64,000 nucleotides of DNA from Nannocystis bainbridge (GCF_028368995.1 NZ_JAQNDL010000003.1:224001-288000); one strand, 5' to 3'; shown: positions 12,509 to 35,743, counted from the stretch's first letter. The notes: a model not told the origin generated them from the letters alone. Program-made: numbers and translations.

Positions 12509-13024
12509 GTGTGCCAGCTTGAGATCCTGCTTCTCATGTCTTCGCTTCGCCGTGAGGGCGCGCTGTGGGTCGTCGCCGACGTTTTCGAGGCCGACCTGCT
12601 GCAGGTCCGCTCGGGCACCTCGGTCAAGCTGCGCTTCCCCGCCGACCCGGAGCCGATCGCCGGCCGCGTCGTCGGCGTCGGCGGGCTGGTCGACGTCGGC
12701 CAGCGCCGCGCCCCCGTCTACATCGCGCTCACCGACGAGGCCGTCGCCTCGCGCAACCTCACCCCCGGCATGTTCGTGCGCGCCGACATCACCGGCCCCG
12801 TCGGCGTCGGCGTCACGCTGCCCAAGCAGGCCGTCCTGATCAAGGACACCGACACCGCGACCGCCTACTTCGAGGTCGAGCCCGGCACCTTCGAGGCCCG
12901 CCACGTGGTCCTCGGCCACACCTCCGGCGACCACGCGCAGATCGTCTCCGGGGTGAACCCCGGCGAGCGCGTGGCCGTGGCCGGCGCGCTGCTGATCGGT
13001 CAGCAGCTGGCGTCCCGGCCCTGA
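12509..13024 (+). pseudogene. C-terminal fragment of an RND efflux membrane fusion protein (CusB/CzcB-like)
   Basis: LWVVADVFEADL..., LTPGMFVRADI, LPKQAV, FEARHVVLG, SGVNPGERVAVAGALL; no N-terminal anchor or hairpin, no RND partner. Confidence 0.65.
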
Positions 13025-13103
13025 GGCCTGTCCGTTCGGGCATGTCGCCGAGGACATGCCCGTTCGCGCATGCCCCTACGGACATGTCCTCAGCGACACG
13101 TCC
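13024..13103. repeat. Tandem array of the 14-bp palindrome TGYCY-N4-RGRCA (5 units)
   Basis: TGTCCGTTCGGGCA TGTCGCCGAGGACA TGCCCGTTCGCGCA TGCCCCTACGGACA TGTCCTCAGCGACA, contiguous from 13029. Confidence 0.9.
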
Positions 13104-13106
13104 GTC

Positions 13107-13814
13107 TCAAGGCGCGTCGTAGCGATCGTGGTGGCGCACCCACGCCATCGGTTCCGCCAGCCCCTCCTCCTGGCGACCGAGCGGCGTCAGGTCGAGCATG
13201 TGGTAGGTCCCCATCAGCACCTCGACGCCGCGGCCGTACGACGAATAGGTGTGATAGACGGCCTCGCCATCGCGCACGAACGCGCTGATGCCCGGCGCCT
13301 CGGGGTGCGGGAACGGCCTCGTCGCGTAGTTGTAATCGACCGCGGCCAGCTCGGCCGGCGCGAACGACACGTGAAAGTCGTAATTGAAGCGGCTGCCGGC
13401 CGACGACACCCACGGGAACGTCCAGCCCATGCGCGCGCGAAAAACCAGCAGCTTGGCCAGCGGCGCCCGCGAGACGGCCACGAACGCGGTGTCGCGGGCG
13501 GCCAGGTGGGCCACCGTGCCCGACAGATGATCGCCGATGAACGAGCAGCTCTTGCAGCCCGCCTCCCACGCCGGGTCGAACATGAAGTGATACACGACCA
13601 ATTGCTGCTTGCCGGCGAACAGCTCGACCAGGCTGCGCTCGCCGTCGGGCCCGGCGAACGCGTACGGGGTGTCGACGCGGACCCGCGGCAGCGCGCGGCG
13701 GGCCGCGCTCAGGGCGTCGCCCTCGCGGGTGTACGCCTTCTCGCGGGCCAGCAGCTCGCGGCGGGCCGCCAGCCAGACTTCGCGGCTCACGACATCAGTG
13801 TTCACGGGGTTCAT
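13107..13814 (-). CDS. DUF899 family thioredoxin-like protein
   Basis: WLAARRELLAREK, GCKSCSF (CxxC), HTYSSYGRG, LDLTPLGRQE, WVRHHDRY. Confidence 0.92.
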   Translation of the reverse strand: MNPVNTDVVSREVWLAARRELLAREKAYTREGDALSAARRALPRVRVDTPYAFAGPDGERSLVELFAGKQQLVVYHFMFDPAWEAGCKSCSFIGDHLSGTVAHLAARDTAFVAVSRAPLAKLLVFRARMGWTFPWVSSAGSRFNYDFHVSFAPAELAAVDYNYATRPFPHPEAPGISAFVRDGEAVYHTYSSYGRGVEVLMGTYHMLDLTPLGRQEEGLAEPMAWVRHHDRYDAP

Positions 13815-13956
13815 GACGTTCTTCCTTTCGCGGCTCGGACGAGGGTCGCAGCGCGGGCGAGCGGATCGCTCGCACCACCCACGGACTCAGGGCAGCGCCG
13901 AACCCGGTCGCGGTGGCGACGGTCAGCGCAATCGATTGCCAACAGGCGGGACACAT
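13795..13956 (-). CDS. Small membrane peptide beginning MCPAC, upstream of DUF899
   Basis: MCPACWQSIALTVATATGFGAALSPWVVRAIR...: N-terminal CxxC plus a hydrophobic helix; overlaps the DUF899 start. Confidence 0.6.
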   Translation of the reverse strand: MCPACWQSIALTVATATGFGAALSPWVVRAIRSPALRPSSEPRKEERHEPREH

Positions 13957-14030
13957 GACGACTGTGTAAAACAACCCCGCCCGCGCCGCCCGTAACATTC
14001 ATGGCGCGACCGCCTCGCGCGGCCGGCCCC

Positions 14031-14157
14031 GGCCCTCGTGACAATCACCGCCCGACGCCCCGCGCCCTCGTGACATTGTCTCGCCCGCCCGCCCCGCGGC
14101 CCTCGTGACATTGTCCCGTCCGCTCCCGCCTTCACCGCCGCGGCCCTCGTGACATTT
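14031..14157. promoter_or_regulatory. Four direct repeats GCCCTCGTGACA(A/T)T in a divergent promoter region
   Basis: GTGACA cores at 14038, 14070, 14105, 14149, plus variant GTAACA at 13992. Confidence 0.7.
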
Positions 14158-14183
14158 CCCGGCCGACGGCCCATCCTCGCCGC

Positions 14184-15389
14184 GTGTCCTCCCTCCTCGA
14201 CGCGGCTCGCGCGCTCGCCGGTGGCGACCCGCTGCGCGCCCTCGCCGGCGTCGGTCGCGACGACAGCGCGCGCGGCCTCACCCTGCGCGGCATCGCCTAC
14301 GCCCAACTCGGCGACCTCGAGCTCGCGCGCAGCGCCCTCGAGCTGGCGGTCACCCGCGCCGACGATCCGCTGCTCGTCGCTCGCGCCCGCGCCGCGCTCT
14401 GCGAGGTCGAGCTCGGCAGCGGCGCCCCGGCGGCCGCCGCCAGCGCCGCCCGGGCCGCCGCCGACGCCCTCGAGCGCCTCGGCGACTCCCGCAACGCCGC
14501 CATGCAGCGGCTCGTCCTGGCCCGCGCCGAGGTCCTGCTCGGCCGCCTCAACGAGGCCCGCCGCGTCGCCGGGGCCGTGCTCGCCCGCGACCTCGGCCCC
14601 GACCTGCGCGCCGTCGCCTCGCTCGTGCAGGCCGAGATCGCCGTGCGCGCGCTGGCCCCCACCGACGCCAGCGAAGCCCTCGCGCGCGCCCGCGAGGCCC
14701 TGACCCTCGCGCCCCATCAATTGCTCGCGCGCACCGTCGAGGCGCTGGAGCACGAGCTGGCCCGCCCGGTCGCCTCGGTCTGGCGCGCCGGCGCGACCTC
14801 CGAGGCCGACCTGTTCGCCATCCAGGCCCTCGCGCGCGGCCACGTGCTGCTCGTCGACGCCTGCCGCCGCCTCGTCCTCGCCGGCCGCGTCACCGTCCCG
14901 CTGGCCCGCCGCCCGGTGCTGTTCGCCCTCCTCCTCGAGCTCGCGCGCGCCTGGCCGGCCGCGCTCGCGCGCGACGAGCTGGCCGCCCGCGGCTTCGCCG
15001 TCCGCCGCGTCAACGACTCGCACCGGGCCCGCCTGCGCGTCGAGCTCGGCCGCCTGCGCAAGCTGATGGACGGCCTCGCCGCCGCGCCCACCGCCCGGGC
15101 CGACGGCTACGTGCTCGACTCGCAGCGCGAGGTCGTCATCCTGACGCCGCCGACCGACGACGAAACCGCCCGCCTCGGCCTGCTGCTCGGCGACGGCGCG
15201 GCGTGGTCGGCCCAGGCGCTGGCCGAGCACGCCGGCGTGTCGCGGCGGACCGCCCAGCGGGCCCTGCAATCGCTCGTCGAGCGCGGCGTCGTGGTCCGCA
15301 CCGGCAAAGGAAAAGACATCCGTTACACCCGCCCCGGCGCCCCGATCGCGTCACGGATGTTACTCCTCGGCCTCGTCCCGGCCGGCTAG
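14184..15389 (+). CDS. TPR-like transcriptional regulator with winged-helix and C-terminal HTH domains
   Basis: AARALAGGDPLRAL...LRGIAYAQLG N-terminus; RPVLFALL...RLRVELGRLRK wHTH; WSAQALAEHAGVSRRTAQRAL HTH. Confidence 0.85.
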   Translation: MSSLLDAARALAGGDPLRALAGVGRDDSARGLTLRGIAYAQLGDLELARSALELAVTRADDPLLVARARAALCEVELGSGAPAAAASAARAAADALERLGDSRNAAMQRLVLARAEVLLGRLNEARRVAGAVLARDLGPDLRAVASLVQAEIAVRALAPTDASEALARAREALTLAPHQLLARTVEALEHELARPVASVWRAGATSEADLFAIQALARGHVLLVDACRRLVLAGRVTVPLARRPVLFALLLELARAWPAALARDELAARGFAVRRVNDSHRARLRVELGRLRKLMDGLAAAPTARADGYVLDSQREVVILTPPTDDETARLGLLLGDGAAWSAQALAEHAGVSRRTAQRALQSLVERGVVVRTGKGKDIRYTRPGAPIASRMLLLGLVPAG

Positions 15390-15398
15390 ACCTGCTGC

Positions 15399-16272: not shown

Positions 16273-17010
16273 ATGCGTAGAATCATCGCTACTACCATTC
16301 ACCGCCTCGTTATCGGCCTCGTGCTCGTCGCTGCCTGCGACGAAGGCATTATCGACTCCGGGCAGCACGCCACCCCCGCCTCGCTCGCTTGCGGCGGCGC
16401 CGTCGGCTTCGAATGCCCAGCCGGCCTCGAATGCATCGACCACAGCGGCGCCGCCTGCCACCCCGAGCAGGAGGGCTCCGATTGCTCCGGCATCTGCGAG
16501 CCGATCGATGGCCTCTGCGGCGGCTTCGCCGATGTCGCCTGCGACGAGGGCTGGATCTGCGTCGACCTCGCCGACGCCTGCGACCCCGCAATGGGCCACA
16601 GCGATTGCCTCGGCGGCTGCCGCCCGGCCCCGCAGGAGCCCGACCCGCGCCCCGAGCCCGATCCGCGCCCCGACCCGCGCCCCGAGCCCGACCCGCGCCC
16701 CGACCCGCGCCCCGAGCCCGAGCCGCGCCCCGAGCCCGAGCCCGAGCCGCTGCCCGAGGGCCTCTGCGGCGGCCCGACCCACGGCGAATGCGAGGAGGGC
16801 TGGGTCTGCCACGACCTCGCCGACGATTGCGTGCCCGCCCGCGGCGACAGCGATTGCCTCGGCGGCTGCCGGCCGCTCGAGGTCGACATCGAGCCCGCCC
16901 GCATCTACGTCAGCCACGACCGCGAGGAGTGCGCCGTGGTGCAGTTCGAGTGCGACCCGGACGAGCGCCAGTTCTTCGAGGAGTCCGGCTGCGGCTGCGA
17001 GAAGCTCTGA
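16273..17010 (+). CDS. Cys-rich lipoprotein with CGGxxxxxC modules and a Pro-Glu/Asp-Arg repeat linker
   Basis: Lipobox VAAC; three CGG...C...C modules; (EPDPRP)n linker. Confidence 0.75.
   Translation: MRRIIATTIHRLVIGLVLVAACDEGIIDSGQHATPASLACGGAVGFECPAGLECIDHSGAACHPEQEGSDCSGICEPIDGLCGGFADVACDEGWICVDLADACDPAMGHSDCLGGCRPAPQEPDPRPEPDPRPDPRPEPDPRPDPRPEPEPRPEPEPEPLPEGLCGGPTHGECEEGWVCHDLADDCVPARGDSDCLGGCRPLEVDIEPARIYVSHDREECAVVQFECDPDERQFFEESGCGCEKL
16636..16749 (+). repeat. Coding 6-bp-unit minisatellite (CCCGAG/CCCGAC/CCGCGC) encoding PEPDPR
   Basis: Visible tandem repeat in the sequence. Confidence 0.85.
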
Positions 17011-17100
17011 CCGGCGCGGCGGCCTCACGGCCGATGATCACACATGTCTATTGGGACATGTACAATCATCGGCGAGTCTGCCCGCCCAGCCGACGACGGC

Positions 17101-18051
17101 TCAGCCCGGCTCGAGCGCGTGGCAGCAGCCGGTCTTGCAGTACTGGTCCTCGGGGCAGTCGCTCTGGCCCTTGTCGTCGATCTCGCACGGCTGGGCGTCG
17201 CCCTCGCAGGACGCCTCGTCGCAGCCCGGCGGCGGCTCGGTCTCGCCGAAGCACACCTCGCACTCCTCCGGCTGGCACTCGTCGTCGCAGTCGAGGTTCT
17301 TCGTGCACAGCTGGCACGAGCCGATGTCCGACAGCGCGCAGTCCAGGTCGCCGAGGAAGATGTCGTACGTCATCCCCTCGACCACCACGGTGCAGCAGCC
17401 GAAGCAATCGCAGCCGTTCGGCACCTGACACTCGTCGATGCACTGCTGCGGCTGCTCCTGCGGGCAGTTGTTGAAGTTCTCGTCGTACGGGCACTTGTCG
17501 CCGCCCGGGCTCTTCGGGTCGCACTTCAGGTCCCACGCGCAGTCGCCGTTGCCGCCGCCCGAGTTGCCGTCGAAGAAGCAGTCCTGCTTGCACGGGTCCA
17601 TGTTGTCGCCCGGCAGGCCGGTGGCGAACGTCTCCTCGCGGTCGTCGCACGGCGAGACGCACTCCGGGTCGGCCTGGTCGACCAGGCCGTCGCCGTCGTT
17701 GTCCATGCAATCGCCACAGGCGTAGAGCGTGCCGTTGCACAGCAGCGGCACGCAGGCCCCGCCCCCGGTCGTCGTCGTCGTCGTCTCGGTCGCCGTCACC
17801 GGCCCCGTCGAAGCATCGGTCGTCGAGGTCGAGGTCGTCGTCGTGCTGGTGCCCGTGGTCGGCCCGGCCGTGGTCGGCTCCGCCGTCGTGCCCGTCGTGT
17901 CCTCCGTCCCGGAGGTCGGCCCCGCGGTCGTCACCGTCGTGATCTCCGACGCTGTGCCCGTCTCGCTCGCGACCTGCGTCTCCGTCTCGCCTTTGCTCGG
18001 GCTGTTGCAAGCCAGCAGCGCACACACTCCGAGGATGTGTATCGTTTTCAT
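17101..18051 (-). CDS. Cys-rich myxobacterial lipoprotein with Thr-rich stalk
   Basis: LLAC lipobox; CGDCMDNDGDGLVD Ca-binding-like motif; many Cys. Confidence 0.8.
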   Translation of the reverse strand: MKTIHILGVCALLACNSPSKGETETQVASETGTASEITTVTTAGPTSGTEDTTGTTAEPTTAGPTTGTSTTTTSTSTTDASTGPVTATETTTTTTGGGACVPLLCNGTLYACGDCMDNDGDGLVDQADPECVSPCDDREETFATGLPGDNMDPCKQDCFFDGNSGGGNGDCAWDLKCDPKSPGGDKCPYDENFNNCPQEQPQQCIDECQVPNGCDCFGCCTVVVEGMTYDIFLGDLDCALSDIGSCQLCTKNLDCDDECQPEECEVCFGETEPPPGCDEASCEGDAQPCEIDDKGQSDCPEDQYCKTGCCHALEPG

Positions 18052-21603: not shown

Positions 21604-22253
21604 CAGACCACCTCCACTCCCCACAATCCGTCGCGCGCCGTCCCGCGGTCAACGCCGCGGCCTCGACGCCCGGAACGAGACCGCGCCCCGGCCCAATACC
21701 TACATAACTTTTAAGACATGTCCTTTCAGCCATATCCTACCATGCCTCCCGGCGGCGAGCCCGGCCCAGCGGCCCGTCCTCCGCGGCGGCCCGAGCGCTT
21801 GCTTTCGCAGTCCTTGAATGAAGACCACCAAACCTGGACACAAACCCCGCGGAACCTCACTTTGAATCCAGGTTCTCACCGCTCGCTCCGGCGTCGGCGC
21901 GCAACGGCCGCCGGGCGGAGGTTCAATCGATCGCACCCTCGCCCCGCAGAGCCCGCTCCGGCGTGACCGCGACCATCGATCCGCCACGCATTGCACATAC
22001 GACACCGCCCACGGCAGAGGTTCGCCGCCAGCCAGCCCCTGCAGCGCAGGGCCCTCGCCGCAATCACCGGTGAATCACCCTGTCCTCATTCACCGCTGGG
22101 CACTTCCCCGATCTGCGGCTTCGCCCCGGTCCCGCGAAGCTGTCTTTCATCGGCTCCGCGTCACGCTGGCCCGGCCGAGGGGGCCGGACCCCGCTGCGCG
22201 CCCGACCACGATCGCTTGACCTGCGGCCGCGGCCTCCTTCACCCTGGCCCTCC

Positions 22254-23982: not shown

Positions 23983-24879
23983 ATGCATTGTCTTGGTTTG
24001 AATTATCGTCGCTTCACCCTGCTTGCCTGCGCCCTCGCGCTCGCCTGCGTGCCCAAGGGGCCAGGCGGCGACGACACCACCGCGGCGACCTCCGAGACCT
24101 CCGAGACCTCCGAGACCTCGTCGGCCACCACCACCCTTACCACCACCACCATCACCACGACGGCCCCCACGACCACCGACGCCACCACCGAGACCACCGG
24201 CGGCCCCGAAGCCATGTGTGAAGTCGATGGCAGCGAGAACTACCCCGACGAGGGCATGTTCGCCGTCTTCCCCGAGGGCGACGTCGACGAGCCCTGCACC
24301 CTCGCCAGCGCGCTCGAGGTCGGCAGCGCGCTCGAGCTGACCCTGCAATGCCCCGACTTCGCCGCCCAGTTCGGCGGCGATTTTGTGGTCCGCATCGAGC
24401 ACGGCCCGCGGCCCCAGCCCTCGCCGCCGGCGGGCAGCATCCTCGACGTGTTCGCCACCGGCTTCGACCCCGGCTATCCCTTCACCAGCCACGCCTGGCT
24501 GTCGCTGCGCCACGACGGCGCCTTGCTGTACGCGGTCACCCAGGGCGAGGCGCTGCTGTCCGAGGTCGGCGACCCCGCGGCCTACGAGCCCTTCACGTTC
24601 ACCCGCCTCGACGACTGCCCCTTCGTCGACGGCGTCGACACCGGCGTCGTCGACGCCACCCTGCTCTGCCAGACCATCGCCCGCGCGCACCTGCAGGTGC
24701 TCGTGGGCGGCGACGAGGCGCTCGTGATGTCCGAGGGCGAGACGACCACCGTGCTCGCCGACGCCGTCCCCTACGCCATCGACCTCGTCGCCCTGCGTCG
24801 CCTCAAGGACTGCTACATCGAGCCGCCCGCCGACGACTTCCCCCGCTACGACTTCGCCATCGCCGCCCAGGCCGAGTGA
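23983..24879 (+). CDS. Hypothetical lipoprotein with Thr/Ser-rich stalk
   Basis: LALAC lipobox; TSETSETSET repeat; GC3-rich frame. Confidence 0.75.
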   Translation: MHCLGLNYRRFTLLACALALACVPKGPGGDDTTAATSETSETSETSSATTTLTTTTITTTAPTTTDATTETTGGPEAMCEVDGSENYPDEGMFAVFPEGDVDEPCTLASALEVGSALELTLQCPDFAAQFGGDFVVRIEHGPRPQPSPPAGSILDVFATGFDPGYPFTSHAWLSLRHDGALLYAVTQGEALLSEVGDPAAYEPFTFTRLDDCPFVDGVDTGVVDATLLCQTIARAHLQVLVGGDEALVMSEGETTTVLADAVPYAIDLVALRRLKDCYIEPPADDFPRYDFAIAAQAE

Positions 24880-24906
24880 CCGCGCGGCGCCGCGGCGCCC
24901 TCGTCA

Positions 24907-25017
24907 TCACCTGTCCCTTCGGCCATGCCCCGCGCGCGCCGGAGCGGACCTGTCCGTTGGGACATCCTCACGACCTGTCGTTTACGACATGCCCCGCGGG
25001 GCATGTCCGAAGCGCCA
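24907..25017. repeat. Cluster of 14-bp palindromes TGYCY-N4-RGRCA
   Basis: Units at 24912, 24951, then contiguous 24976 TGTCGTTTACGACA, 24990 TGCCCCGCGGGGCA, 25004 TGTCCGAAGCGCCA. Confidence 0.85.
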
Positions 25018-25191: not shown

Positions 25192-26883
25192 ATGATCGTC
25201 CGTTCGACCACCGTCCTCCTCACTGCTGTCGTCTCGCTCGCCGCCTGCGGCGACGACGGGTCCACCAGCGCCAGCGACACCGCGGGCACCACCGACACGA
25301 CGGGCACCACCGACACGACCGGCACCACGGTCACCCCCGGCACCACCGACGACGATCCGACGACGGTCGCGCCGACCACGACCTCGGTCGACACCACCGG
25401 CCCGGACACCACCACTCAGCCGGTCACCTCCACGACCGACGACACCACCACGACCGACGGCACCACCACGCTCGACACCACGAGCGACACCACCACGCTC
25501 GACACCACGAGCGACACCACCGACACCACCGGCGACACCTCGACCTCGACCGGCGCCGTCGACGAGACCCCGCCTTCCGTGACCCTCGCGCGTCCGTTCG
25601 ACAACGTCTACGTGGCCAGTCGGCGGCTCATCCTCACCGGCGAGGCCAGCGACGACCTCGAGGTCGTCGCCGTCGAGCTCGTCGTCAACGGCGAGGCCCC
25701 GGTCGCGCTCCCGATCGGGCCCGGGCCGGTGCTCGAGTTCAGCGCCGACGTCCGCCTCCGCCGCGGCTGGAACTCCCTGCAGTTGATCGCCCGCGACGCG
25801 GCCGACAACACCGGCAGCAGCACGCGCCACGTCCACCTCGGCGTGCCGGTGGCCGCCGGCGGGGCCCACTCGCTCGCGGTCGTCGACGGCGCGGCCTGGG
25901 GCTTCGGCCGCAACAACGAGGGCCAGCTCGGCGCCGGCGACCTCGTCGATCACCACCTCCCCACCGCGATGATGGGCCTCGACGACGCGGTCTCGCTGTC
26001 GGCCAACCTCAACCACTCGCTGGCGGTCCTGCCCGACGGCAGCGTCAAGGTCTGGGGCCGCAACGACGAGGGCCAGCTCGGCCAGCCGCCCCCCGTCGAC
26101 GTCGCGGTCCCGGCGACCCTCGCCGGCCTGCCCGAGGTCGTGCTCGTCGCCGCCGGCCAGCGCCACAGCCTCGCGCTCACCGAGGACGGCCACGTGTGGT
26201 CGTTCGGCTTCAACAACGCCGGCCAGCTCGGCCGCGCCGGCGACTCGCTGCCCGCCGTCGTGCCCGGCCTCGAGGACATCGTCGCCATCGCCGCCGGCGG
26301 CACCTACTCCGCCGCGGTCGACGGCACCGGCGTCGTGTGGGCGTGGGGCAACAACACCGACGGCCAGCTCGGCGACGGCATGACCGTCGACTCACCTGTC
26401 CCCAAGGCCATCTCGATGGTCGACGCCGTGGCCGTCGCCGCCGGCAAGGCCCACACCCTCGCCGTCGCGCCGCTCGGCAGCCTGGCCGCCTGCGGCCTCA
26501 ACGTGTCCGGCCAGCTCGGCGACGGCCTCAGCGCCGACAACGTCCTGCTGCCGGTCGCCGTGCCCGAGTTCGCCGACCTCCTGACCGTCGCCGCCTCCGG
26601 CAACCTGTCGCTCGCGCTCGCCGGCGACGCCCAGCTGTGGGCCTGGGGCCAGAATTTCTCCGGCCAGCTCGGCCTCGGCGACAACGCCGATCGCCCCGCG
26701 CCGACGATCGTGCCCGGCCTGCCGCCCGTGCGGGCGATCGCCGCCGGCCTCGCCCACACCGTCGTGTTCGACGAGAACGGCGGCGTCTGGGCCTGGGGCC
26801 TCAACTCGTTCGGCCAGCTCGGCAAGGGCGACGCCGGCAACCCGACCAACAGCGCCGTGCCGCTGCAGGTCGCCCTGCCCTGA
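25192..26883 (+). CDS. RCC1-repeat lipoprotein with Ig-like domain and Thr-rich stalk
   Basis: LAAC lipobox; seven AAGxxHSLA...WGxNxxGQLG RCC1 repeats. Confidence 0.9.
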   Translation: MIVRSTTVLLTAVVSLAACGDDGSTSASDTAGTTDTTGTTDTTGTTVTPGTTDDDPTTVAPTTTSVDTTGPDTTTQPVTSTTDDTTTTDGTTTLDTTSDTTTLDTTSDTTDTTGDTSTSTGAVDETPPSVTLARPFDNVYVASRRLILTGEASDDLEVVAVELVVNGEAPVALPIGPGPVLEFSADVRLRRGWNSLQLIARDAADNTGSSTRHVHLGVPVAAGGAHSLAVVDGAAWGFGRNNEGQLGAGDLVDHHLPTAMMGLDDAVSLSANLNHSLAVLPDGSVKVWGRNDEGQLGQPPPVDVAVPATLAGLPEVVLVAAGQRHSLALTEDGHVWSFGFNNAGQLGRAGDSLPAVVPGLEDIVAIAAGGTYSAAVDGTGVVWAWGNNTDGQLGDGMTVDSPVPKAISMVDAVAVAAGKAHTLAVAPLGSLAACGLNVSGQLGDGLSADNVLLPVAVPEFADLLTVAASGNLSLALAGDAQLWAWGQNFSGQLGLGDNADRPAPTIVPGLPPVRAIAAGLAHTVVFDENGGVWAWGLNSFGQLGKGDAGNPTNSAVPLQVALP

Positions 26884-27348
26884 TCCGCCGCCGCGGCGCG
26901 AGGCCGGCGGGTCACCGCCGGCCTGCTCCCGTCTCGCCGCGACCACCGGCCGATGCACGCCTCTGCGAGGTCGCGGCCCCGCGCTCCGCGATCGAGCCGA
27001 GCGCGACGCCGCCGTCTCTGCCACATGTCCCGAAGCACAGATGCACGAATCTCCGCCAGCTCCGCATTCGTGCATACGCCACAGTAGGCGCGAGTAAGGC
27101 GAATCGCCTACACGCACCCCGGAATGCGGCGCGCAAATGCCACTGGGCCGCTCTGGCCTCACCGCGTTGCCTCGCGGCCTCACCAGACCGCACGCCCCGA
27201 ATAGACATAGGTCTTTTGGGACATATTCTCGCTCGTGATCGCCAAGAGCGGCGTTCTGCGGCCCGCGCGATCGCCGGGGCGCGCCCACGCCCGCGGCGCC
27301 GGGTGCACGCCCGGCGACGGCCGCGTCCTGGATGATATAGATGCAAGC

Positions 27349-27975
27349 ATGCACAACACCCCGCGCATTCTCGCCCTCCTCGCCCTCCTCGCCCCCGTCG
27401 CCTGCGACGTCGACGACGACACCGCGAACGCCGTCGGCGAGGGCGTCATCGGCATCGGCATCGAATCGACCGAGTTCGCCGAGCTCGACATCGACGAGCT
27501 GACCGACGCGACCGACCCCTCGTTCGCCTGCAGCGACGCCGGCTGGAACTCGTCGTGGGCCACGCTCGAGGACCAGGTGCTCACCCTCGTCAACCAGAAG
27601 CGCGCCGCGGGGGCGGTCTGCGGCGGCGTCACCAAGCCGCCGGTCCCGGCCCTCACCGCCCAGGCCCAGCTGCGCTGCGCCGCCCGCAACCACTCGAAGG
27701 ACATGGGCGACAACAACTTCTTCAGCCACACCGGCTCGAACGGCTCGGCCTTCAGCGCGCGGATCACCGCCGCCGGCTACGTGTGGAAGGCCGCCGGCGA
27801 GAACATCGCCGCCGGCTACGCCACCGCCGCCGCGGTCGTCAACGGCTGGATGACCAGCACCGGCCACTGCAACAACATCATGAACGGCAACTACAAGCAC
27901 CTCGGCATCGGCTACTACAACGCCCCGAGCTCGACCTACAAGCACTACTGGACGCAGGACTTCGGCAAGAACTGA
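27349..27975 (+). CDS. CAP/SCP domain lipoprotein
   Basis: LVNQKR, AARNHSKDM, FFSHTG, GENIAAG, WMTSTGHCNNIM, YWTQDFG. Confidence 0.92.
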   Translation: MHNTPRILALLALLAPVACDVDDDTANAVGEGVIGIGIESTEFAELDIDELTDATDPSFACSDAGWNSSWATLEDQVLTLVNQKRAAGAVCGGVTKPPVPALTAQAQLRCAARNHSKDMGDNNFFSHTGSNGSAFSARITAAGYVWKAAGENIAAGYATAAAVVNGWMTSTGHCNNIMNGNYKHLGIGYYNAPSSTYKHYWTQDFGKN

Positions 27976-29638: not shown

Positions 29639-30763
29639 TCAGCTCGCCGGGCTCGCCGGCTCGGTCGGGTTCGCGGGCAAGCCCTCCTCCGGCGGCACCA
29701 CGTAGAGCGTGCGGCTGGGGAACGCGAACTCGTAGCCGAGCCCTCGCATCTCGCGGAGCAGCTCGAGCAGCAGCTGCTGGTGGAGCGCGACGAACACCGA
29801 ATAATCGGCGGTGGTCACCCAGTACACGACCTCGTATTCGATCGCCGATTCGCCGAGGTTGACCAGCGCGGCGCGGTCGAGGCGGACGTGCTCGCGCCGC
29901 TCGACGGCCGCGCGCAGCAGGTCGGGCAGCCGCTCGAGCAGCTCCTGCGGCGTGGTGTAGACGACGCCGATGCGCAGCACGACCCGCCGCTCCTGCATGC
30001 GGGTGAAGTTCTGGATCCGGCTCGACAGCAGGTCGTTGTTCGAGAGCACCAGCTCCTCGCCGCCAGAGGCCGCGAGCACGGTGCTGCGCATCCCGATCCG
30101 CCGCACCGTGCCCGACAGCTGGCCGACCTGGATCGAGTCGCCGGGGGCGAACGGCTTGTCGACGATGATCGAGACCGACGCGAGGATGTCGCTCAGGACC
30201 TTCTGCACCGCCAGCGCGATCGCCACGCCGCCGATGCCGAGGCCGGCCACCAGCGCCGTGATGTCGATGCCCATCGCCGACAGCGCCACCAGCATCACGA
30301 TCGACCAAACGATCACCAGCCCGACCAGGCGCAGCAGCGCCTGGGCGATCGGGGTGACCTGCGGCGACGCGCCCTCGGCGTGCACGTGGCGCGCGAACCG
30401 GCGGTCGACCAGATAGCGCACGATCGTGCTGGCCCAGATCCCGCCCTGGACCATCCCGCCGATGATCAGCGCCACGTGGATCCGGTGGTCCCACCGCTCC
30501 GGCAGGTCGAGCGTCACCGACGCCAGGCGCATGCCGATCAGCGTGAAGAACCACCCGCGCGTGCGCTCGATCAAGGACGCGAGCGTGTCGTCGACGTCCG
30601 ACTCCGTCCGCACCGCGTGCTTGCGCAGCCGCCGGGTCGCCACCCGCCGCACCAGCATCAGCGTCGGCGTCAGCGCCACCAGGATCACCGCCGCGGCCAG
30701 CCACTGCAGGCCCGTAATTCCCAGCCAGGTCCGCTCCAAAAGCGATTCGACAGCCTCTACCAT
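29639..30763 (-). CDS. mscS: Small-conductance mechanosensitive channel
   Basis: LVAGLGIGGVAIALAVQKVLSDI, DKPFAPGD, IGMRST, IQNFTRMQERR, FAFPSRTL. Confidence 0.92.
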   Translation of the reverse strand: MVEAVESLLERTWLGITGLQWLAAAVILVALTPTLMLVRRVATRRLRKHAVRTESDVDDTLASLIERTRGWFFTLIGMRLASVTLDLPERWDHRIHVALIIGGMVQGGIWASTIVRYLVDRRFARHVHAEGASPQVTPIAQALLRLVGLVIVWSIVMLVALSAMGIDITALVAGLGIGGVAIALAVQKVLSDILASVSIIVDKPFAPGDSIQVGQLSGTVRRIGMRSTVLAASGGEELVLSNNDLLSSRIQNFTRMQERRVVLRIGVVYTTPQELLERLPDLLRAAVERREHVRLDRAALVNLGESAIEYEVVYWVTTADYSVFVALHQQLLLELLREMRGLGYEFAFPSRTLYVVPPEEGLPANPTEPASPAS

Positions 30764-30828
30764 GGCGCGGCGAGCATAGCCGAATTCGCCGCGCGCGCCA
30801 CGCCTGCGCGCGTGCGTGAAGCGTCAGA

Positions 30829-30877
30829 GGACATGCCTTTGAGGACATGCCCGAAAGAGCATGCCCGAAGAGACATC
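30829..30877. repeat. Tandem 14-bp palindrome array (3 units) in the divergent mscS/kinase promoter region
   Basis: TGCCTTTGAGGACA TGCCCGAAAGAGCA TGCCCGAAGAGACA from 30834. Confidence 0.85.
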
Positions 30878-31069: not shown

Positions 31070-34000
31070 GTGATCCCGGGGACAGAGCTGGCGGAGCTGC
31101 TCGACGACGGCCTGCTGGTCGTGTCCCACACCGGCGAGGTGCGCTCCGCCAACCCCGCGGCCGAGCGCATGCTCGGGGCGGAGCGGTCGGCGTTGCTCGG
31201 GCGCGACCTGGCGTCGCTGCTGCCCGGGGCGCCCGAGGGCGCGCTGCACGACGCCTGCGCCGGCGCCCGCGAGTCCAGCCTGCGGGCGACCGACCGCCGC
31301 GGCTTCGGCCTGGCCGTGCGCGTCGTCCCGCGCGCCGCCGACGCGTGGGTGTTCCTGCGCGGCGAGGTCGACCCCACGCCCGCGCCGATCACCAACGCCG
31401 ACGTCGTGCGCACCATCCTCGACCACGCGCCGGTGGTCCTGTTCGCCGTCGACGCCGACGCGACCATCACCCTGAGCGAGGGTCACGGCCTCGCCATGCT
31501 CGGCCGCGCCCCCGGGGCCAACGTCGGCCGCTCGTGCTGGGACGCCTACCACGACGTGCCGTGGATCCTGGACAGCGTCCGCAAGGCCCTCGCCGGCGAG
31601 CCGGTCACGATCGTCGGCGAGCTGCGCGGCCGCGTGTTCGACGTCCACTACGCCCCGGTCCGCGAGGGCGCCGGCGACGTCACCGGCGTGCTCGGCGTGG
31701 CCCTCGACGTCACCGAGCGCGAGCGGGCGATGGAGAAGCTGGCCTCGCAGCGCTCGGTCCTCAAGTACCTGCTCGCCAACGTGCCGCAGGCGATCTTCTG
31801 GAAGGACCGCCAGTGCCGGTTCCTCGGCTGCAACCAGAAGTTCCTCGAGCACACCGGCCTGACCGACGAGCGCCAGCTGCTCGGCAAGACCGACCACGAC
31901 ATCTGGGCCAGCCCCGAGGAGTCCGATTTCTTCCGCCTGATGGACGAGCGGGTCATGTCGAGCGGCGTGCCGATCCTCGACATCGAGGAGCCGCTGCGCC
32001 GCCCCGACGGCCGCCAGACCTTCATCCTCACCAGCAAGGTCCCGCTCCGCGACGACGCCGGCCAGGTCACCGGGCTCCTCGGTATCTACGTCGACATCAC
32101 CGAGCGCAAGCGCATCGAGCTCGAGAGCCAGCGCGCCAAGGAGGCCGCCGACGCGGCGCTGCGAGCCAAGAGCGAGTTCCTCACGGTGATGAGCCACGAG
32201 CTGCGGACCCCGCTCACGCTGATCCTCGGCCCGCTCGAGGCCCTGCTCGCCGACCCGGCCGAGCCGCTCAGCCACGCCGCTCGCGCCTCGCTGTCCCGCA
32301 CGTGGCGTAACGCCGCCCGCCTCGGCCGTCTCGTCGACGACATCCTCGACTATCAAAAGCTCGAGGCCGGCAAGATGAAGGTCGTGTGGGAGCCGGTCGA
32401 CGTCCACGACCTCGTCGAGGACCTCGTCGCCGACGCCGAACCGGCCGCCCGCAGCGCCGGCATCACCCTGCGCCACGACCTCGCGCCCGACGTGCGGACC
32501 GTCCCGCTCGACCCGCGCATGTTCGAGAAGATCGTCCTCAACCTGCTCGGCAACGCCCTCAAGTTCACGCCCGCCGGTGGCACCGTCACCGTCTCGCTCG
32601 AGCGCGCGGACGACGGCCAGCTGCGCCTCGAGGTCGCCGACACCGGCCCCGGCATCGCCCCCGAGGAGCACGAGCGGGTGTTCCAGCGCTTCCAGCAGCT
32701 CGACACCGCGAGCAGCCGCAAGCACGAGGGCCTCGGCCTCGGCCTCGCCATCGTCCGCGAGTTCGCCGAGGCGATGGGCGGCCGCGTGCGCCTGTGCAGC
32801 GAGCTCGGGGACGGCGCCTGCTTCGTCGTCGAGCTGCCGATCGACGCCGACCGCCTGGCCCGGATGGGCCCGCCGCAGACCCGGACCTCGCGCCTCCCGC
32901 TGCCGGTCGAGCCCGCCGCCCTCGAAGCCGTCGAGCCTCCCTCGCCCGCGCCCGGCCGCCCGCGGGTCATCGTCGCCGAGGACAACCCCGACATGCGGGC
33001 CTTCATCGCCGCGGTCCTGCGCCCCGACCACGACATCGTGCTCACCGTCAACGGCGCCGAGGCGCTGGCGGCCGCCCGCGAGCGCCGGCCCGACGTCATC
33101 GTCTCCGACATCATGATGCCGGAGATGGACGGCTACGAGCTCGTCACCCGCCTCAAGCGCGCCCCCGACCTGCGTGACATCCCGGTCATCGTCCTCAGCG
33201 CCAAGGCCAGCCGCGAGGAGACCGTGCGCGGCCTCGAAGTCGGCGCCGACGACTACCTGCCCAAGCCGTTCGCCCCCGCCGAGCTGCGCGCCCGCATCGG
33301 CGCGGCCCTCCGCTTGCACCGCGTCCACCTCGAGATCGTCGCCCAGAAGCAGGAGCTCGAGCAGACCCTGCGGATCCTCGAGGAGACCCAGGACCAACTG
33401 GTACAGTCGAGCAAGATGGCCGCCGTCGGCACCCTCGTGGCCGGCCTGTCGCACGAGCTCAACAATCCGGTCGCTATCATTCGCATGAGCGCGCAGATGC
33501 TGCTGCGCCGCGGCTCGCGCGACCCATTCGTACGCCGCACGCTCGAGCGGATCGAGCGGCACTCGCAGCGCTGCGCCGGCCTGGTCGAGGCGCTGCTGGC
33601 CTACAGTCGCCGCCGCCCGCAGGTCGCCGAGCGCTGCGAGCTCGGCCAGGTGCTCTCGTGGCTGCTGGAGCTCGCCCGCCCCGAGGCCCTGGAGCGAGGG
33701 ATTCGCCTCGTCGCCGAGTTCGTGCCCGAGAAGCTGCCCGCCCTGGTCGTCCACCGCCCCGCGCTCGAGTCCGCGCTGCTGAATGTGATCGGCAACGCCG
33801 CCGACGCCACCGGTCGTGGTGGTATCATCGAGGTCACGGCGCGCGCCGCCACCGGTGACGACGACGTCGAAGGCGCCGAGATCCTCGTCCGCGACAGCGG
33901 CGTCGGCATCGCCCCGCAGGCCCTCCCCCACGTGTTCGAACCGTTTTACACCACCAAAGCCCCGGGCAAGGGCACCGGCCTCGGCCTGCCGATGACGCAG

Positions 34001-34132
34001 AAATTCGTCCAGGCCCACGGCGGCTCGATCCGCGTCGACAGCGAGCTCGGTCGCGGCACCGCGGTCCGGATCTGGCTCCCGCTGGTCCCGTCCGGGCCCT
34101 CCGAGCCGCCCGAAGCCCAGGAGGCCCCGTGA
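31070..34132 (+). CDS. Multi-PAS hybrid sensor: PAS x3 - HisKA/HATPase - REC - HisKA/HATPase
   Basis: MSHELRTPL...DTGPGI...GLGLGL; IVAEDN...SDIMMP...KP; LSHELNNP...DSGVGI...GTGLGL; GTG start at 31070 is inferred. Confidence 0.88.
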   Translation: MIPGTELAELLDDGLLVVSHTGEVRSANPAAERMLGAERSALLGRDLASLLPGAPEGALHDACAGARESSLRATDRRGFGLAVRVVPRAADAWVFLRGEVDPTPAPITNADVVRTILDHAPVVLFAVDADATITLSEGHGLAMLGRAPGANVGRSCWDAYHDVPWILDSVRKALAGEPVTIVGELRGRVFDVHYAPVREGAGDVTGVLGVALDVTERERAMEKLASQRSVLKYLLANVPQAIFWKDRQCRFLGCNQKFLEHTGLTDERQLLGKTDHDIWASPEESDFFRLMDERVMSSGVPILDIEEPLRRPDGRQTFILTSKVPLRDDAGQVTGLLGIYVDITERKRIELESQRAKEAADAALRAKSEFLTVMSHELRTPLTLILGPLEALLADPAEPLSHAARASLSRTWRNAARLGRLVDDILDYQKLEAGKMKVVWEPVDVHDLVEDLVADAEPAARSAGITLRHDLAPDVRTVPLDPRMFEKIVLNLLGNALKFTPAGGTVTVSLERADDGQLRLEVADTGPGIAPEEHERVFQRFQQLDTASSRKHEGLGLGLAIVREFAEAMGGRVRLCSELGDGACFVVELPIDADRLARMGPPQTRTSRLPLPVEPAALEAVEPPSPAPGRPRVIVAEDNPDMRAFIAAVLRPDHDIVLTVNGAEALAAARERRPDVIVSDIMMPEMDGYELVTRLKRAPDLRDIPVIVLSAKASREETVRGLEVGADDYLPKPFAPAELRARIGAALRLHRVHLEIVAQKQELEQTLRILEETQDQLVQSSKMAAVGTLVAGLSHELNNPVAIIRMSAQMLLRRGSRDPFVRRTLERIERHSQRCAGLVEALLAYSRRRPQVAERCELGQVLSWLLELARPEALERGIRLVAEFVPEKLPALVVHRPALESALLNVIGNAADATGRGGIIEVTARAATGDDDVEGAEILVRDSGVGIAPQALPHVFEPFYTTKAPGKGTGLGLPMTQKFVQAHGGSIRVDSELGRGTAVRIWLPLVPSGPSEPPEAQEAP

Positions 34133-34536
34133 CCGCCGTCGACGCCGGCGGCGCCACCGAGGCCTGCGCCATGCCGCGGGTGCTGGTGATCGACGACGAG
34201 CGCGACATGCTCGAGATCCTGCAAGACTTCTTCGAGAGCGAGGGCTACTCGGTGCAGGTCGCCGACAGCGGCGAGCGGGCCATCGAGCTGTGTCGCCGCG
34301 ACAGCTTCGACGTCGCCATCACCGACATGCGCATGCCCGGGATCGACGGCCTCCACACCCTCATCGGCCTGCGCCAGCTCGACCCCCGCCTGCAGGTCAT
34401 CGTCGTCACCGGCTACGCCTCCGACGACACCGAGCAGCGCTGCCGCAACGCCGGCGCCTTCGAGTGCGTACAAAAGCCGGTCGACCTCGACACCCTGCTG
34501 CGCCTCGTCGGCGCCGCCGTCCAGGCCCGCGACTGA
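34129..34536 (+). CDS. Single-domain response regulator
   Basis: VLVIDDE, ITDMRMPG, VTGY, QKPVD; GTGA overlap with the kinase (alternative ATG 34171). Confidence 0.9.
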   Translation: MTAVDAGGATEACAMPRVLVIDDERDMLEILQDFFESEGYSVQVADSGERAIELCRRDSFDVAITDMRMPGIDGLHTLIGLRQLDPRLQVIVVTGYASDDTEQRCRNAGAFECVQKPVDLDTLLRLVGAAVQARD

Positions 34537-34540
34537 GCCC

Positions 34541-34715
34541 CGAGCCCGGCGAATCACCGCCGCCCTGGCCCGCGACCGAGCCCTCCGCGCCCGGCGAATC
34601 ACCGCCGCCCTGGCCCGCGACCGAGCCCTCCCGCGCTCGGCGAATCACCGCCGTCTTCGCGGCCCGGCGACCGAGCCCTCCCGCGCTCGGCGAATCACCG
34701 CCGTCTTCGCGGCCC
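34541..34715. repeat. Four tandem 45-50 bp intergenic repeats with GGCGAATCACCGCC core
   Basis: GGCGAATCACC at 34548, 34593, 34639, 34689 with near-identical linkers. Confidence 0.9.
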
Positions 34716-34806
34716 TGAGCCGCCGCCTGCCCATTCGCAGGTCGTGGCGCGCCCCCTCGCCGCCGGCCCGTGGCGGACGCCGTGGCGAGCGACTATCGTC
34801 GCCCGC

Positions 34807-35640
34807 GTGAGCGACACCGACCTCGCCTATGGGCTCGTGCTCTTGTCGGGCGTCCTGCACGCCACCGTCAACGCGATCCTCAAGGCCGGCAGCGACAAGT
34901 TGGTCGGCCGCGCCCTCATCGACGCCGCCAGCGCCGCGGTCGTCCTGCCCGCCCTCGCCTTCGTCCCGCTGCCCGCGGGCGCGTGGCCCTGGCTGCTCGT
35001 CTCGCTGGTGATTCACCTCGTCTACCTCTATTCGCTGGTGCGCGCCTACGAGGTCAGCGACTTCTCGGCCGCCTATCCGGTGGCCCGCGGCAGCGCCCCG
35101 CTGCTCACTGCGGTGGTCGTCCTCGGCGTGTTCCACGAGCCCGCGCGCCCGCTCGAGCTGGTCGGCATCCTCGCCATCGGCGCCGGCATGCTCGCCATGG
35201 GTTTCGGCCGCCACCTCAGCCGCGCCGCGCTCGGCTGGTCGCTGCTGACCGGCGTGTGCATCGCCGCCTACACCGTCATCGACGCCTCGGGCGTGCGCGC
35301 GGCCCCGTCCGCCGCCAGCTACATCGCCTGGCTGTTCGTCCTCCACGGCACCGTCATCAGCACCGTGTTCGCCGCCATCCGCGGCCGCGGCGTGCTCGCG
35401 GTCGCCCGCGAGCAGTGGCGGCCCGGCGTCGTCGCCGGCGTCCTCAGCATCGGCACCTACGGCCTCGCCCTCGCCGCCTATCGCCTCGGCCCCACCGCCC
35501 CGCTGTCGGCCCTGCGCGAGACCAGCATCCTCGTCGCCACCGTCATCGCCGTCGTCTGGCTCAAAGAGCGCGTGACCCCGCTGCGCGCCGCCGCGGCCGC
35601 CGCGATCGCCCTCGGCGCGGCGCTGATCCTGGCCGCGTGA
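34807..35640 (+). CDS. EamA/DMT family transporter
   Basis: About ten hydrophobic helices; AYPVARGSAP, YTVIDASG, SALRETS; GTG start 7 nt after TATCGT. Confidence 0.9.
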   Translation: MSDTDLAYGLVLLSGVLHATVNAILKAGSDKLVGRALIDAASAAVVLPALAFVPLPAGAWPWLLVSLVIHLVYLYSLVRAYEVSDFSAAYPVARGSAPLLTAVVVLGVFHEPARPLELVGILAIGAGMLAMGFGRHLSRAALGWSLLTGVCIAAYTVIDASGVRAAPSAASYIAWLFVLHGTVISTVFAAIRGRGVLAVAREQWRPGVVAGVLSIGTYGLALAAYRLGPTAPLSALRETSILVATVIAVVWLKERVTPLRAAAAAAIALGAALILAA

Positions 35641-35652
35641 GCGCGCCGCCGA

Positions 35653-35743
35653 TGGCATGTCCTTCGAGACATGCCCCCGAGAACATGCCCCCATGAACAT
35701 GCCCTCGGGGACATGCCCCAGAGCACCTGTCCTCGCAGACATC
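35653..35743. repeat. Tandem array of the 14-bp palindrome (6 units)
   Basis: TGTCCTTCGAGACA TGCCCCCGAGAACA TGCCCCCATGAACA TGCCCTCGGGGACA TGCCCCAGAGCACC TGTCCTCGCAGACA from 35658. Confidence 0.92.

Follow-up and report, generated by a model that had tools for sequence, protein, structure and literature searches.

The DNA analysed here is a 64,000-nucleotide stretch of the Nannocystis bainbridge genome (NZ_JAQNDL010000003.1:224001-288000), referred to below as the window, and the element under study is a 14-bp interrupted palindrome (dyad) that occurs in it singly and in tandem arrays. Four arrays had been predicted from the sequence of the window and were found at 13029-13098, 24976-25017, 30834-30875 and 35658-35741, with 5, 3, 3 and 6 units, respectively, counted from the first letter of the window. 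They consist of abutting 14-bp units TGYCC-N4-GGRCA, and each junction between units reads CATG. A two-unit pattern with at most two mismatches matched 15 times in the window, compared to a mean of 0.02 in 100 dinucleotide-preserving shuffles. The strict single-unit pattern matched 16 times (0.78 expected), and with one mismatch it matched 40 times (20.2 expected), thereby recovering five of six scattered single copies of the original prediction. Of the positions named there, 17045, 23756 and 24951 carry exact dyads and 21719, 24912, 27026 and 27210 carry dyads with one mismatch. No dyad with up to one mismatch lies at 42072; the copy listed there was probably the dyad at 42058-42071. Tandem Repeats Finder detected parts of only two arrays, with low scores, because the units differ. 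It also reported a 28-bp super-period in some arrays. In the following list, G000 denotes the source genome and G010 a second species of the genus Nannocystis; scores in bits refer to the weight matrix described below.

13029-13098: array of 5 dyads filling the 82-bp convergent spacer between genes 12509-13024 (plus strand, HlyD-like fragment) and 13107-13814 (minus strand, DUF899)
24912-25017: loose cluster in the tandem spacer after gene 23998-24879 (plus strand), with single dyads at 24912-24925 and 24951-24964 and 3 contiguous dyads at 24976-25017
30820-30875: 3 dyads and a degenerate outer unit (at 30820) in the divergent spacer between an MscS-like gene (29639-30739, minus strand) and a hybrid histidine kinase gene (31070-34132, plus strand)
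35658-35741: array of 6 dyads beginning 17 nt past the stop codon of an EamA-type transporter gene (34807-35640, plus strand), which is convergent with gene 35887-37278 (minus strand)
58082-58109: contiguous pair of dyads, absent from the original prediction, inside a called TPR-protein gene (57253-58446, minus strand)
17045-17058: single dyad flanked on each side by CATG, convergent spacer 17010-17101; G000 has it, the orthologous place in G010 does not
21719-21732: single copy with one mismatch, located in the spacer that separates 21552 from 22323
23756-23769: single dyad, 17 nt past the stop codon of an M23 peptidase gene (22323-23738, plus strand)
27026-27039: single copy with one mismatch, in the spacer that follows an RCC1-repeat gene (25192-26883, plus strand)
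27210-27223: single copy with one mismatch, likewise in the spacer that follows the RCC1-repeat gene, upstream of a CAP-domain gene (27349-27975)
6989-7002: intragenic single dyad in a histidine-kinase gene (5392-7350, plus strand); identical at the aligned position of G010
26397-26410: intragenic single dyad with one mismatch in the RCC1-repeat gene, 13.9 bits; G010 retains 13.2 bits with a changed N4
40786-40799: intragenic single dyad in gene 39112-42072 (minus strand); identical in G010
42058-42071: dyad of 13.2 bits at the 5' edge of gene 39112-42072 (minus strand); 7.6 bits in G010
55929-55942: intragenic single dyad in an RHS-repeat gene (52908-56378, minus strand)
57657-57670: intragenic single dyad in the TPR gene (57253-58446, minus strand)

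The genes flanking the arrays of the window are mutually unrelated and encode an HlyD-like fragment, a DUF899 protein, an EamA transporter, an Ig-like protein, an MscS protein, a hybrid kinase and an RCC1-repeat protein. At the site orthologous to 13029-13098, G010 also carries an array, with different N4 sequences. The divergent spacer holding array 30820-30875 belongs to a rare class of locations. The neighbouring RHS-repeat and TPR genes both contain intragenic dyads, including the contiguous pair in the latter.

Genome sequences, gene calls and scoring of sites

The source genome comprises 11.05 Mb in five contigs, with 71.5% G+C and a completeness of 90.5%. A weight matrix was derived from array units, a unit was counted at a score of at least 10 bits, and the reversed genome sequence served as control. 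Arrays were defined by chaining CATG words in 14-bp register. Genes were called with a home-made codon log-odds caller, resulting in 8,070 genes and 82-85% coding sequence. Since only about 45 kb within the first 400 kb of G010 were syntenic with the window region, 1.2 Mb of G010 were aligned to the entire G000, which gave 534 kb of alignment at 87.9% identity. In confident genes, the identities of 0.919, 0.936 and 0.830 at the three codon positions of this alignment fit correct reading frames. A search of the window against Rfam at gathering thresholds gave 0 matches.

Abundance and phasing in the genome

The weight matrix found 10,966 dyad units in G000, compared to 562 in its reversed sequence, and with a threshold of 14 bits 5,735 compared to 43. 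One 14-bp word accounts for about 1.4% of the 11-Mb genome (10,966 units x 14 bp). Units were present on all five contigs, and the chromosome-wide motif that had been predicted is thus borne out by genome-wide enrichment. The predicted 14-bp period also holds elsewhere and is strictly phased throughout the genome: CATG words were 14 bp apart 3,736 times, compared to 72 times at 13 bp and 262 times at 15 bp, with harmonics at 28 bp (2,073), 42 bp (1,584) and 56 bp (742). Successive units of the weight matrix were 14 bp apart 2,884 times, 28 bp 471 times and 42 bp 146 times, and every other spacing up to 60 bp occurred at most 71 times. In total, 2,074 arrays were obtained, 1,003 with two CATGs and 703 with four or more, the longest with 20 units.

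When the four largest contigs were divided into 5% bins, each bin had a density of 0.4-1.7 units per kb, and the overall density was about 1 per kb; plotted along the contigs, density had no focus at the origin (ori) or terminus (ter) of replication. The only longer trough (0.16-0.55 units per kb) was on contig C5. Intragenic dyads ranged from 0.03 to more than 1 per kb among 40-kb segments and rose with the local G+C content (r 0.35), from 0.28 per kb in segments below 69% G+C to 0.58 above 72.5%. Dyad-poor blocks were observed, for example, in the 40-kb segments C2:40000, C1:1520000 and C2:200000, and at about 396-576 kb of C5; these may be recently acquired DNA.

Anatomy of the dyad and of the arrays

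The core TGTCC-N4-GGACA lies within a wider footprint RC(A/C)-TGTCC-N4-GGACA-(T/G)GY. Arm composition in 2,733 internal array units was T/C (0.52/0.37), C 0.75 and C 0.75 on one side and G 0.72, G 0.69 and A/G (0.57/0.30) on the other. Isolated units in genes and spacers have three further informative positions per side, namely R, C and A/C before TGTCC, mirrored after GGACA, which gives a footprint of about 20 bp. Dyads can overlap in 14-bp register because this outer flank (..RCA / TGY..) corresponds to the inner arm of the following site.

The central N4 had been described as freely varying. It is enriched in A+T (two middle positions about 60% A/T, genome 71.5% G+C) and shows nearest-neighbour dependence (mutual information, MI, 0.16-0.24). 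The commonest N4 word was found in 86 of the 2,733 units, and there were no master copies. The length of the spacer is rigid. TGTCC-Nx-GGACA was counted 790 times inside genes and 1,181 times in intergenic DNA at x=4, compared to at most 7 and 9 times, respectively, at any other x from 0 to 3 and 5 to 13, whereas hairpin loops of 3-5 nt would be tolerated. The half-site alone is mildly frequent (12,351 copies; 8,638 of the reversed word).

Past the outermost CATG of an array, GGR is undiminished and one further unit is still visible by its TG and CC, whereas the CA that would begin a further junction is at background; arrays therefore end on whole TG...CA dyads. Adjacent units had the same N4 in 75 of 1,670 pairs (about 19 expected), so that some array growth by duplication has to be assumed. 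At the CATG junction, the asymmetric forms ACATGC and GCATGT were counted 452 and 362 times and the symmetric forms ACATGT and GCATGC 376 and 147 times (MI 0.042). The longest array (20 units, C3:1237915-1238181) was found in a tandem spacer whose neighbours, a YbjQ-like gene and a gene for a pyridoxal phosphate-dependent enzyme, give no clue to its role. It is A/T-richer, and the RACATG side of its units is conserved while the YCC side is not, i.e. it is a directional array of half-sites.

Location relative to genes

Of the arrays, 763 were located in convergent, 759 in tandem and 149 in divergent spacers, 402 in called genes and one at a contig edge; the background of spacers of at least 30 bp was 1,277 convergent, 3,540 tandem and 1,454 divergent. 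For arrays with four or more CATGs, the corresponding numbers were 406 convergent, 221 tandem, 60 genic and 16 divergent. A unit was held by 833 of 1,347 convergent (62%), 1,252 of 3,878 tandem (32%) and 332 of 1,464 divergent spacers (23%). The original prediction had taken the arrays to be indifferent to the arrangement of the adjoining genes. This view has to be replaced by that of a strong bias for gene 3' ends, with 9.7, 3.2 and 1.15 units per kb in convergent, tandem and divergent spacers, respectively.

Arrays in tandem spacers were found at a median distance of 35 bp from the upstream stop codon and 235 bp from the next start codon, 327 being nearer to the stop and 116 nearer to the start. 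In tandem spacers of at least 300 bp, units peaked 0-70 bp after the stop codon and were depleted in the 100 bp before the next start codon. The longest arrays occupy entire convergent spacers. This anchoring just after stop codons, mostly between convergent genes, argues that arrays are important where mRNA transcription units end. Among 102 tRNA genes, a unit was located within 120 nt downstream in 9 cases and upstream in 7, and all four multi-unit cases were downstream.

Dyads within genes

More than a third of the units, a share missed by the original prediction, are intragenic: 4,137 of the 10,966 (about 38%) lie entirely within called genes, at 0.45 per kb. They are single copies and exceed the codon-shuffled expectation 6- to 80-fold. 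In 4,693 confident genes (6.36 Mb), 2,446 units of at least 10 bits were counted, compared to 393 after synonymous-codon shuffling and 234 after shuffling of codon order. At 14 bits or more, the three counts were 1,124, 37 and 14, and at 16 bits or more 505, 11 and 0. These sites arose by substitution, because a 14-bp insertion would shift the reading frame. They are spread along the genes, the last two deciles holding 313 and 252 of the 4,133 units tallied and the others 405-514 each. Codon phases were used unequally (1,849, 1,714 and 570), phase 0 (570) being avoided.

Conservation between species

Of the 119 intragenic units compared with G010, 87 remained at 12 bits or more, 11 scored 8-12 bits, 17 scored below 8 bits and four were gapped; thus 98 were kept at 8 bits or more. 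Identity at third codon positions between G000 and G010 was 0.925 in the arms (n=452) and 0.702 in N4, compared to a background of 0.830 (p 6e-9 for the arms).

At 304 orthologous 3' ends, units were present in both species in 57 cases, in G000 only in 19, in G010 only in 15 and in neither in 213. Two or more units were found at 57 gene ends, 34 of which keep two or more. The number of units was equal in only 10 of these 34, so that the core is kept while the rest turns over. At the orthologous end of gene 34807-35640, an array of 3-5 CATGs was present in four of five loci examined (G005, G010, G001 and G003); in the fifth (L036, G007), the anchor of the gene was not found. The orthologous arrays keep the CATG-YCC core, but N4, unit number and distance to the stop codon cannot be aligned although the gene is about 90% identical. 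The earlier proposal that the arrays are under selection, rather than being a young minisatellite, is upheld by this conservation of the core with change of N4 and unit number.

Distribution among genomes

The two-unit pattern was detected in nine of ten other Nannocystis genomes, with up to 229 matches, and gave 0 matches in 14 other genera of the family and in 16 genomes from other families of the class; the reversed control also gave 0. Among one genome each of 185,579 species, the three-unit pattern matched 31 loci, 28 of them in records named Nannocystis. One match beyond these, in a myxobacterial metagenome-assembled genome (MAG; L029), is a typical array directly after a stop codon. Two further matches were rejected: L014 (alphaproteobacterial MAG, 1490-1550), with GGCATGTCCCGCGG x4, and L026 (Nocardiopsis, 1490-1540), with GGGCATGTCCGGGC x3, are 14-bp minisatellites of identical units that match the pattern by chance and are not of the same kind.

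The exact 18-mer dyad CATGTCC-N4-GGACATG was counted 369 times in G000 and 2-266 times in ten other genomes of the genus. Two sister genera contained five (G011) and two (G013) copies, compared to about 0.02 by chance, and no copy was counted in 12 more genera of the family or in 16 genomes of the class from outside the family; the reversed control was 0 everywhere. Four of the five sites in G011 have longer palindromic flanks, and two of these (L065, L068) reach a perfect ACATGTCC/GGACATGT palindrome. The G011 loci are of lower G+C content (55-63%), and three of the five sites adjoin A/T-rich stretches. Two G011 sites are upstream of genes for secreted proteins (DUF4215, CAP), and one of the low-copy sites is no more than about 1 kb from a TfoX_N gene. 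These low-copy sites may represent an ancestral operator state, and judged from the sequences the phyletic pattern resembles that of an ordinary operator of low copy number, expanded in a single genus.

Arm pairing, RNA folding and terminators

The original prediction had pointed to compensatory changes in the arms of some units. As a general feature these were not found: MI between partner columns was 0.008-0.013 over the 2,733 units, C-A mismatches between the arms numbered 549 (about 576 expected under independence), and in intragenic units Watson-Crick arm pairs were at or below expectation, i.e. there was no pairing excess inside genes. When 1,520 units were oriented according to the gene upstream, Watson-Crick pairs were slightly over-represented (C-G 112 vs 87.8, T-A 68 vs 50.3, and 47 vs 32.0), and C-A mismatches were barely depleted (170 vs 185.3). 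N4 had no strand preference relative to transcription (chi2 46.2, df 40, p 0.23), and stable RNA tetraloops were not preferred in N4 (TTCG 41, CGAA 42). These counts are evidence that the arms count by their sequence rather than by their pairing. The arms were slightly richer in T and G on the sense strand, and N4, the flanks and the surrounding spacer were not; this bias leaves room for an RNA-level contribution.

Folded as RNA, the segment 13025-13105 reached -45 and -52 kcal/mol on its two strands, and 35645-35745 reached -60.5 kcal/mol on the minus and -35 kcal/mol on the plus strand. The cluster 24912-25017 folded at -52.1 kcal/mol (z -3.6); folding of array 30820-30875 was weak (-19.1 kcal/mol, z -2.1). 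Long stems suggested mirror complementarity of N4 across arrays. This candidate was rejected as a small effect: permuting N4 among units weakened 438 arrays by a mean of 0.73 kcal/mol (246 of 438 weakened, p 8e-5), so that the stability of the folds comes from the arms. Convergent spacers with units folded at -0.480 and those without at -0.481 kcal/mol per nt, and their own shuffles at -0.367 and -0.433, which is weak evidence either way.

No run of T follows the arrays; outside them the composition returns to background (A 0.12, T 0.13). Canonical hairpin-plus-T-tract sites in 40 kb of the window were at chance level (6 vs 5.0 and 6 vs 5.6 in shuffles). At tandem 3' ends, such sites were found at 7.1% of 1,375 unit-free ends (antisense control 2.5%) and at 11.0% of 673 ends with units (antisense control 4.5%). 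Canonical sites being rare, another 3'-end element is plausible.

Other repeats in the window

A tandem repeat with a 45-bp period (4.1 copies, 89% matches) was observed at 34514-34703, with the response-regulator gene 34129-34536 on one side and the EamA gene on the other; the aligned G010 sequence lacks it. A repeat with a period of 32-35 bp and about three copies lies at 14014-14123, just upstream of gene 14184-15389, whose product has a C-terminal helix-turn-helix domain (HTH_11 / IclR-type). The repeat at 16636-16748 (30-bp period, 3.7 copies, 93% matches) is inside gene 16321-17010 and encodes a low-complexity stretch rich in Pro, Glu and Asp.

Interpretation

The favoured reading, to which a probability of roughly 45% was assigned, is that a dimeric sequence-specific protein recognises the dyad and that the arrays are pads for several dimers at the ends of transcription units. 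The dyad would be read as duplex DNA, with one monomer on each arm and the A/T-rich N4 at the dyad centre. The arrays would then be runs of 2-20 abutting dimer sites, accumulated and maintained directly downstream of stop codons, chiefly between convergent genes, and the multi-dimer complex might mark or insulate the end of the transcription unit as a roadblock or boundary, with some 4,000 single sites kept inside genes. The nearly independent half-sites, the rigid A/T-centred spacing, the extended footprint with arrays ending on whole dyads and the selection on the arms at synonymous sites together argue for recognition of duplex DNA by a dimeric protein, and the low-copy state in the sister genera fits such a reading. 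Of the landing pads for a dimeric binder that had been proposed earlier, the pads are consistent with these features, whereas the protein is postulated and none was found. Protein binding, the dimeric state and the effect of binding are inferred here from sequence, and this evidence points to a genus-wide DNA recognition system.

Several observations weigh against this reading. No binding protein was found: the genes beside the seven low-copy sites in G011 and G013 (DUF4215, a rhomboid gene with a TfoX_N gene nearby, CAP, beta-lactamase, YceG, DUF6178 and ketoacyl synthase) share no regulator, and their sole cross-locus protein match was a weak one of DUF4215. A p53-like binder (PF00870) was considered on account of the junction RRRCATGYYY, which fits the p53 consensus; the search had no match in G000, but neither had it any in the control genomes, and it carries no weight for or against. 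The boundary or roadblock role is pure inference, and the rarity of units downstream of tRNA genes implies that arrays are not general terminators. At the RNA level, intergenic units show a weak excess of complementary variants (odds ratio about 1.5), and G-U-compatible combinations on the sense strand exceed C-A combinations (656 vs 468). The -1/+14 flank pair of intergenic single units covaries (1,088 Watson-Crick pairs, 867 expected), which may reflect only membership of decayed arrays. Entire arrays fold on average at -32 to -51 kcal/mol, and in 140 tandem arrays the sense strand folded at -36.7 and the antisense strand at -33.6 kcal/mol, i.e. 3.1 kcal/mol better for the sense strand, with the sense fold the better one in 84 arrays and the antisense fold in 56 (p 0.007). 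Gene calls were home-made; the tests of enrichment and conservation were limited to confident genes.

These folding data feed the main rival, an RNA-level role resembling that of repetitive extragenic palindromic (REP) sequences and bacterial interspersed mosaic elements (BIMEs), which is on balance unlikely and may coexist with recognition of DNA by a protein. Arrays would act as clusters of stem-loops at mRNA 3' ends that block 3'-5' exonucleases and/or terminate transcription without a U-tract, and the sequence would be conserved by common descent or through an RNA-binding factor, not by a DNA-binding protein. The peak of units right after stop codons, their enrichment in convergent spacers, the stability of the arrays of the window (-35 to -60 kcal/mol, z -3.3 to -7.3), the sense-strand advantage in folding, the G/T-richer arms of the sense strand and the rarity of canonical hairpin-plus-T-tract sites all agree with it. 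It is opposed by the intragenic single copies with their conservation at third codon positions, by the near absence of stem covariation, by a rigid loop length with preference neither for stable tetraloops nor for a loop strand, and by the low cost of permuting N4; in addition, T-tracts after arrays, an Rfam match in the window and more than occasional units downstream of tRNA genes are all lacking. Type IIA topoisomerases (gyrase or topoisomerase IV), or another enzyme with a 4-bp stagger, might instead act at the dyads where positive supercoils accumulate between convergent genes. The 4-bp dyad centre, the enrichment at convergent 3' ends and the binding of gyrase to BIME-type REP clusters of Escherichia coli would suit such sites, but the specificity of gyrase is weak, its footprint of about 130 bp leaves the 14-bp register unexplained, and no reason is offered for the restriction to one genus, so that we give this explanation very little credence.

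Two further explanations were considered. The dyad could be a signature of 'self' DNA, spread by molecular drive because it is favoured in uptake, recombination or repair; it would accumulate wherever tolerated and pile up at gene ends, where palindromes do no harm or are of use, in the manner of the DNA uptake sequence (DUS) of Neisseriaceae and the uptake signal sequence (USS) of Pasteurellaceae. A frequency of about 1 unit per kb on all contigs, the presence of the word in coding and non-coding DNA with conserved intragenic sites, and the lower intragenic density in segments of lower G+C content, possibly younger DNA, speak for it, and passages of two papers on HIP1, the highly iterated palindrome 1 of cyanobacteria, describe that word as conserved, hyper-abundant and a possible uptake signal (PMC5861425, PMC13756078). 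Homologues of ComEC, DprA and TfoX_N were found in G000, but this discriminates nothing because they also match in 10, 11 and 2 of 14 control genomes. Known uptake sequences, moreover, are asymmetric and not in phased tandem arrays, and the exact 14-bp register and the anchoring beside stop codons would be left unexplained; we regard the idea as improbable. A neutral or selfish minisatellite, or a REPIN-like element (REP doublet forming a hairpin) copied by a dedicated transposase, would have no host function. The sharing of N4 between neighbours above chance and the 28-bp super-period of some arrays imply that duplication of units occurs, short arrays are gained and lost between species, and depletion from divergent (promoter) spacers is as expected of a tolerated parasite. 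Against this stand the retention of core and period despite saturating change in N4 and in the adjacent spacer, the lack of master copies, and the intragenic single sites, which cannot be insertions. No Y1/RAYT transposase (PF01797) was found in G000, at its completeness of 90.5%, with a search that gave matches in 6 of the 14 control genomes. True minisatellites matching the pattern elsewhere (L014, L026) have identical units. An insertion sequence (IS) or miniature inverted-repeat transposable element (MITE) was rejected as a candidate, as the 490 long-range 'terminal repeat' pairs (118 in the control) are merely dyads matching other dyads, and no long terminal-repeat partners beyond these were present. 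A selfish element of this kind has hardly any probability, and a mobile REPIN-like origin is disfavoured.

Recognition by a dimeric protein could also be extended to a bolder proposal, which is held only tentatively and at less than even odds: a low-copy operator would have turned chromosome-wide, its dimer polymerising on phased dyads to form boundaries at about 2,000 unit ends, with about 4,000 intragenic sites. If this were true, boundaries would stand at more than 60% of convergent gene pairs, a sequence-programmed architecture of nucleoid and termination without a described bacterial counterpart. More generally, if a protein reads the dyad, it would be a new mark of gene ends in a high-G+C genome whose canonical terminators, as scanned here, are barely above control levels; if RNA reads it, it would be a new REP-like family invading coding sequence. 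Either way, annotators of Nannocystis genomes should mask the dyad or model it. Its length and specificity suffice for a pull-down, with the arrays as a strong multivalent bait, and the sister genera with 2-5 sites provide a natural 'before' state.

Comparison with known systems

Searches of the literature on Nannocystis, on myxobacterial repeats and on TGTCC/GGACA inverted repeats yielded no description of the dyad. An intrinsic (Rho-independent) terminator consists of a G+C-rich hairpin with a U-tract and occurs after stable-RNA genes; the arrays lack the U-tract, and only 9 of the 102 tRNA genes are followed by a unit. Young minisatellites have near-identical units, and adjacent N4 sequences of the dyad are identical in only 75 of 1,670 pairs. 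The original prediction had compared the dyad to the sites of RacA (ram), Noc (NBS), SlmA (SBS) and MatP (matS), which are likewise palindromes of 12-16 bp, read by dimers and scattered on the chromosome. The sites of those systems number in the tens and are restricted to ori or ter regions, and the comparison fails on some 11,000 sites without regional focus, on the phased arrays and on the bias for gene ends. The MetJ met-boxes, the omega heptads and the ParR iterons are similar in their spacerless head-to-tail repeats with two alternating dyad axes and variable unit number, and by analogy such tandem operators of cooperative dimers (MetJ, ParR) may be the nearest model for the array reading. 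They differ in that each replicon has one such locus or a few, placed at centromeres or upstream of genes under their control, compared to about 2,000 arrays at gene 3' ends in Nannocystis, where no binder of the ribbon-helix-helix or any other type was identified.

REP, BIME and REPIN elements of Enterobacteria and Pseudomonas number hundreds to thousands of copies and are transcribed into stable stem-loops. Like the dyad, they form palindromic clusters downstream of genes and in convergent spacers. REPs are 20-40 nt long, confined to extragenic DNA, separated by variable linkers in alternating orientation and tied to REP-associated tyrosine transposases (RAYTs), whereas the Nannocystis units are 14 bp long without linker, 4,137 of the 10,966 are intragenic, and the cognate RAYT family PF01797 had 0 matches in G000 (90.5% complete). 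DUS of Neisseria and USS of Pasteurellaceae share with the dyad a frequency of about one copy per kb, the occurrence in genes and spacers and the conservation within a genus; they are often inverted pairs at terminators. They are asymmetric 9- to 12-mers and are not known to form phased tandem arrays, in contrast to the symmetric Nannocystis word in its exact 14-bp register.

HIP1 (GCGATCGC) is similarly a lineage-specific, hyper-abundant palindrome of coding and non-coding DNA, over-represented above codon-aware expectation and conserved between orthologues, with an unsettled function. As described in passages of the papers cited above (PMC5861425, PMC13756078), it is 15- to 300-fold over-represented, is conserved inside open reading frames as well as between them and has proposed roles in the nucleoid or in uptake. 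The dyad likewise exceeds a codon-aware null and is conserved in orthologues beyond background (98 of 119 units; 0.925 vs 0.830). HIP1 is a contiguous 8-mer recognised by two methyltransferases, whereas the Nannocystis word is interrupted (5-4-5), has a footprint of about 20 bp and forms tandem arrays with an exact period of 14 bp, which are anchored at the 3' ends of genes. The dyad thus shares features with HIP1, REP/BIME and DUS/USS, but lacks a defining feature of each and belongs to none of these kinds. It provides a tractable case in which to ask what purpose hyper-abundant palindromes, HIP1 among them, serve.

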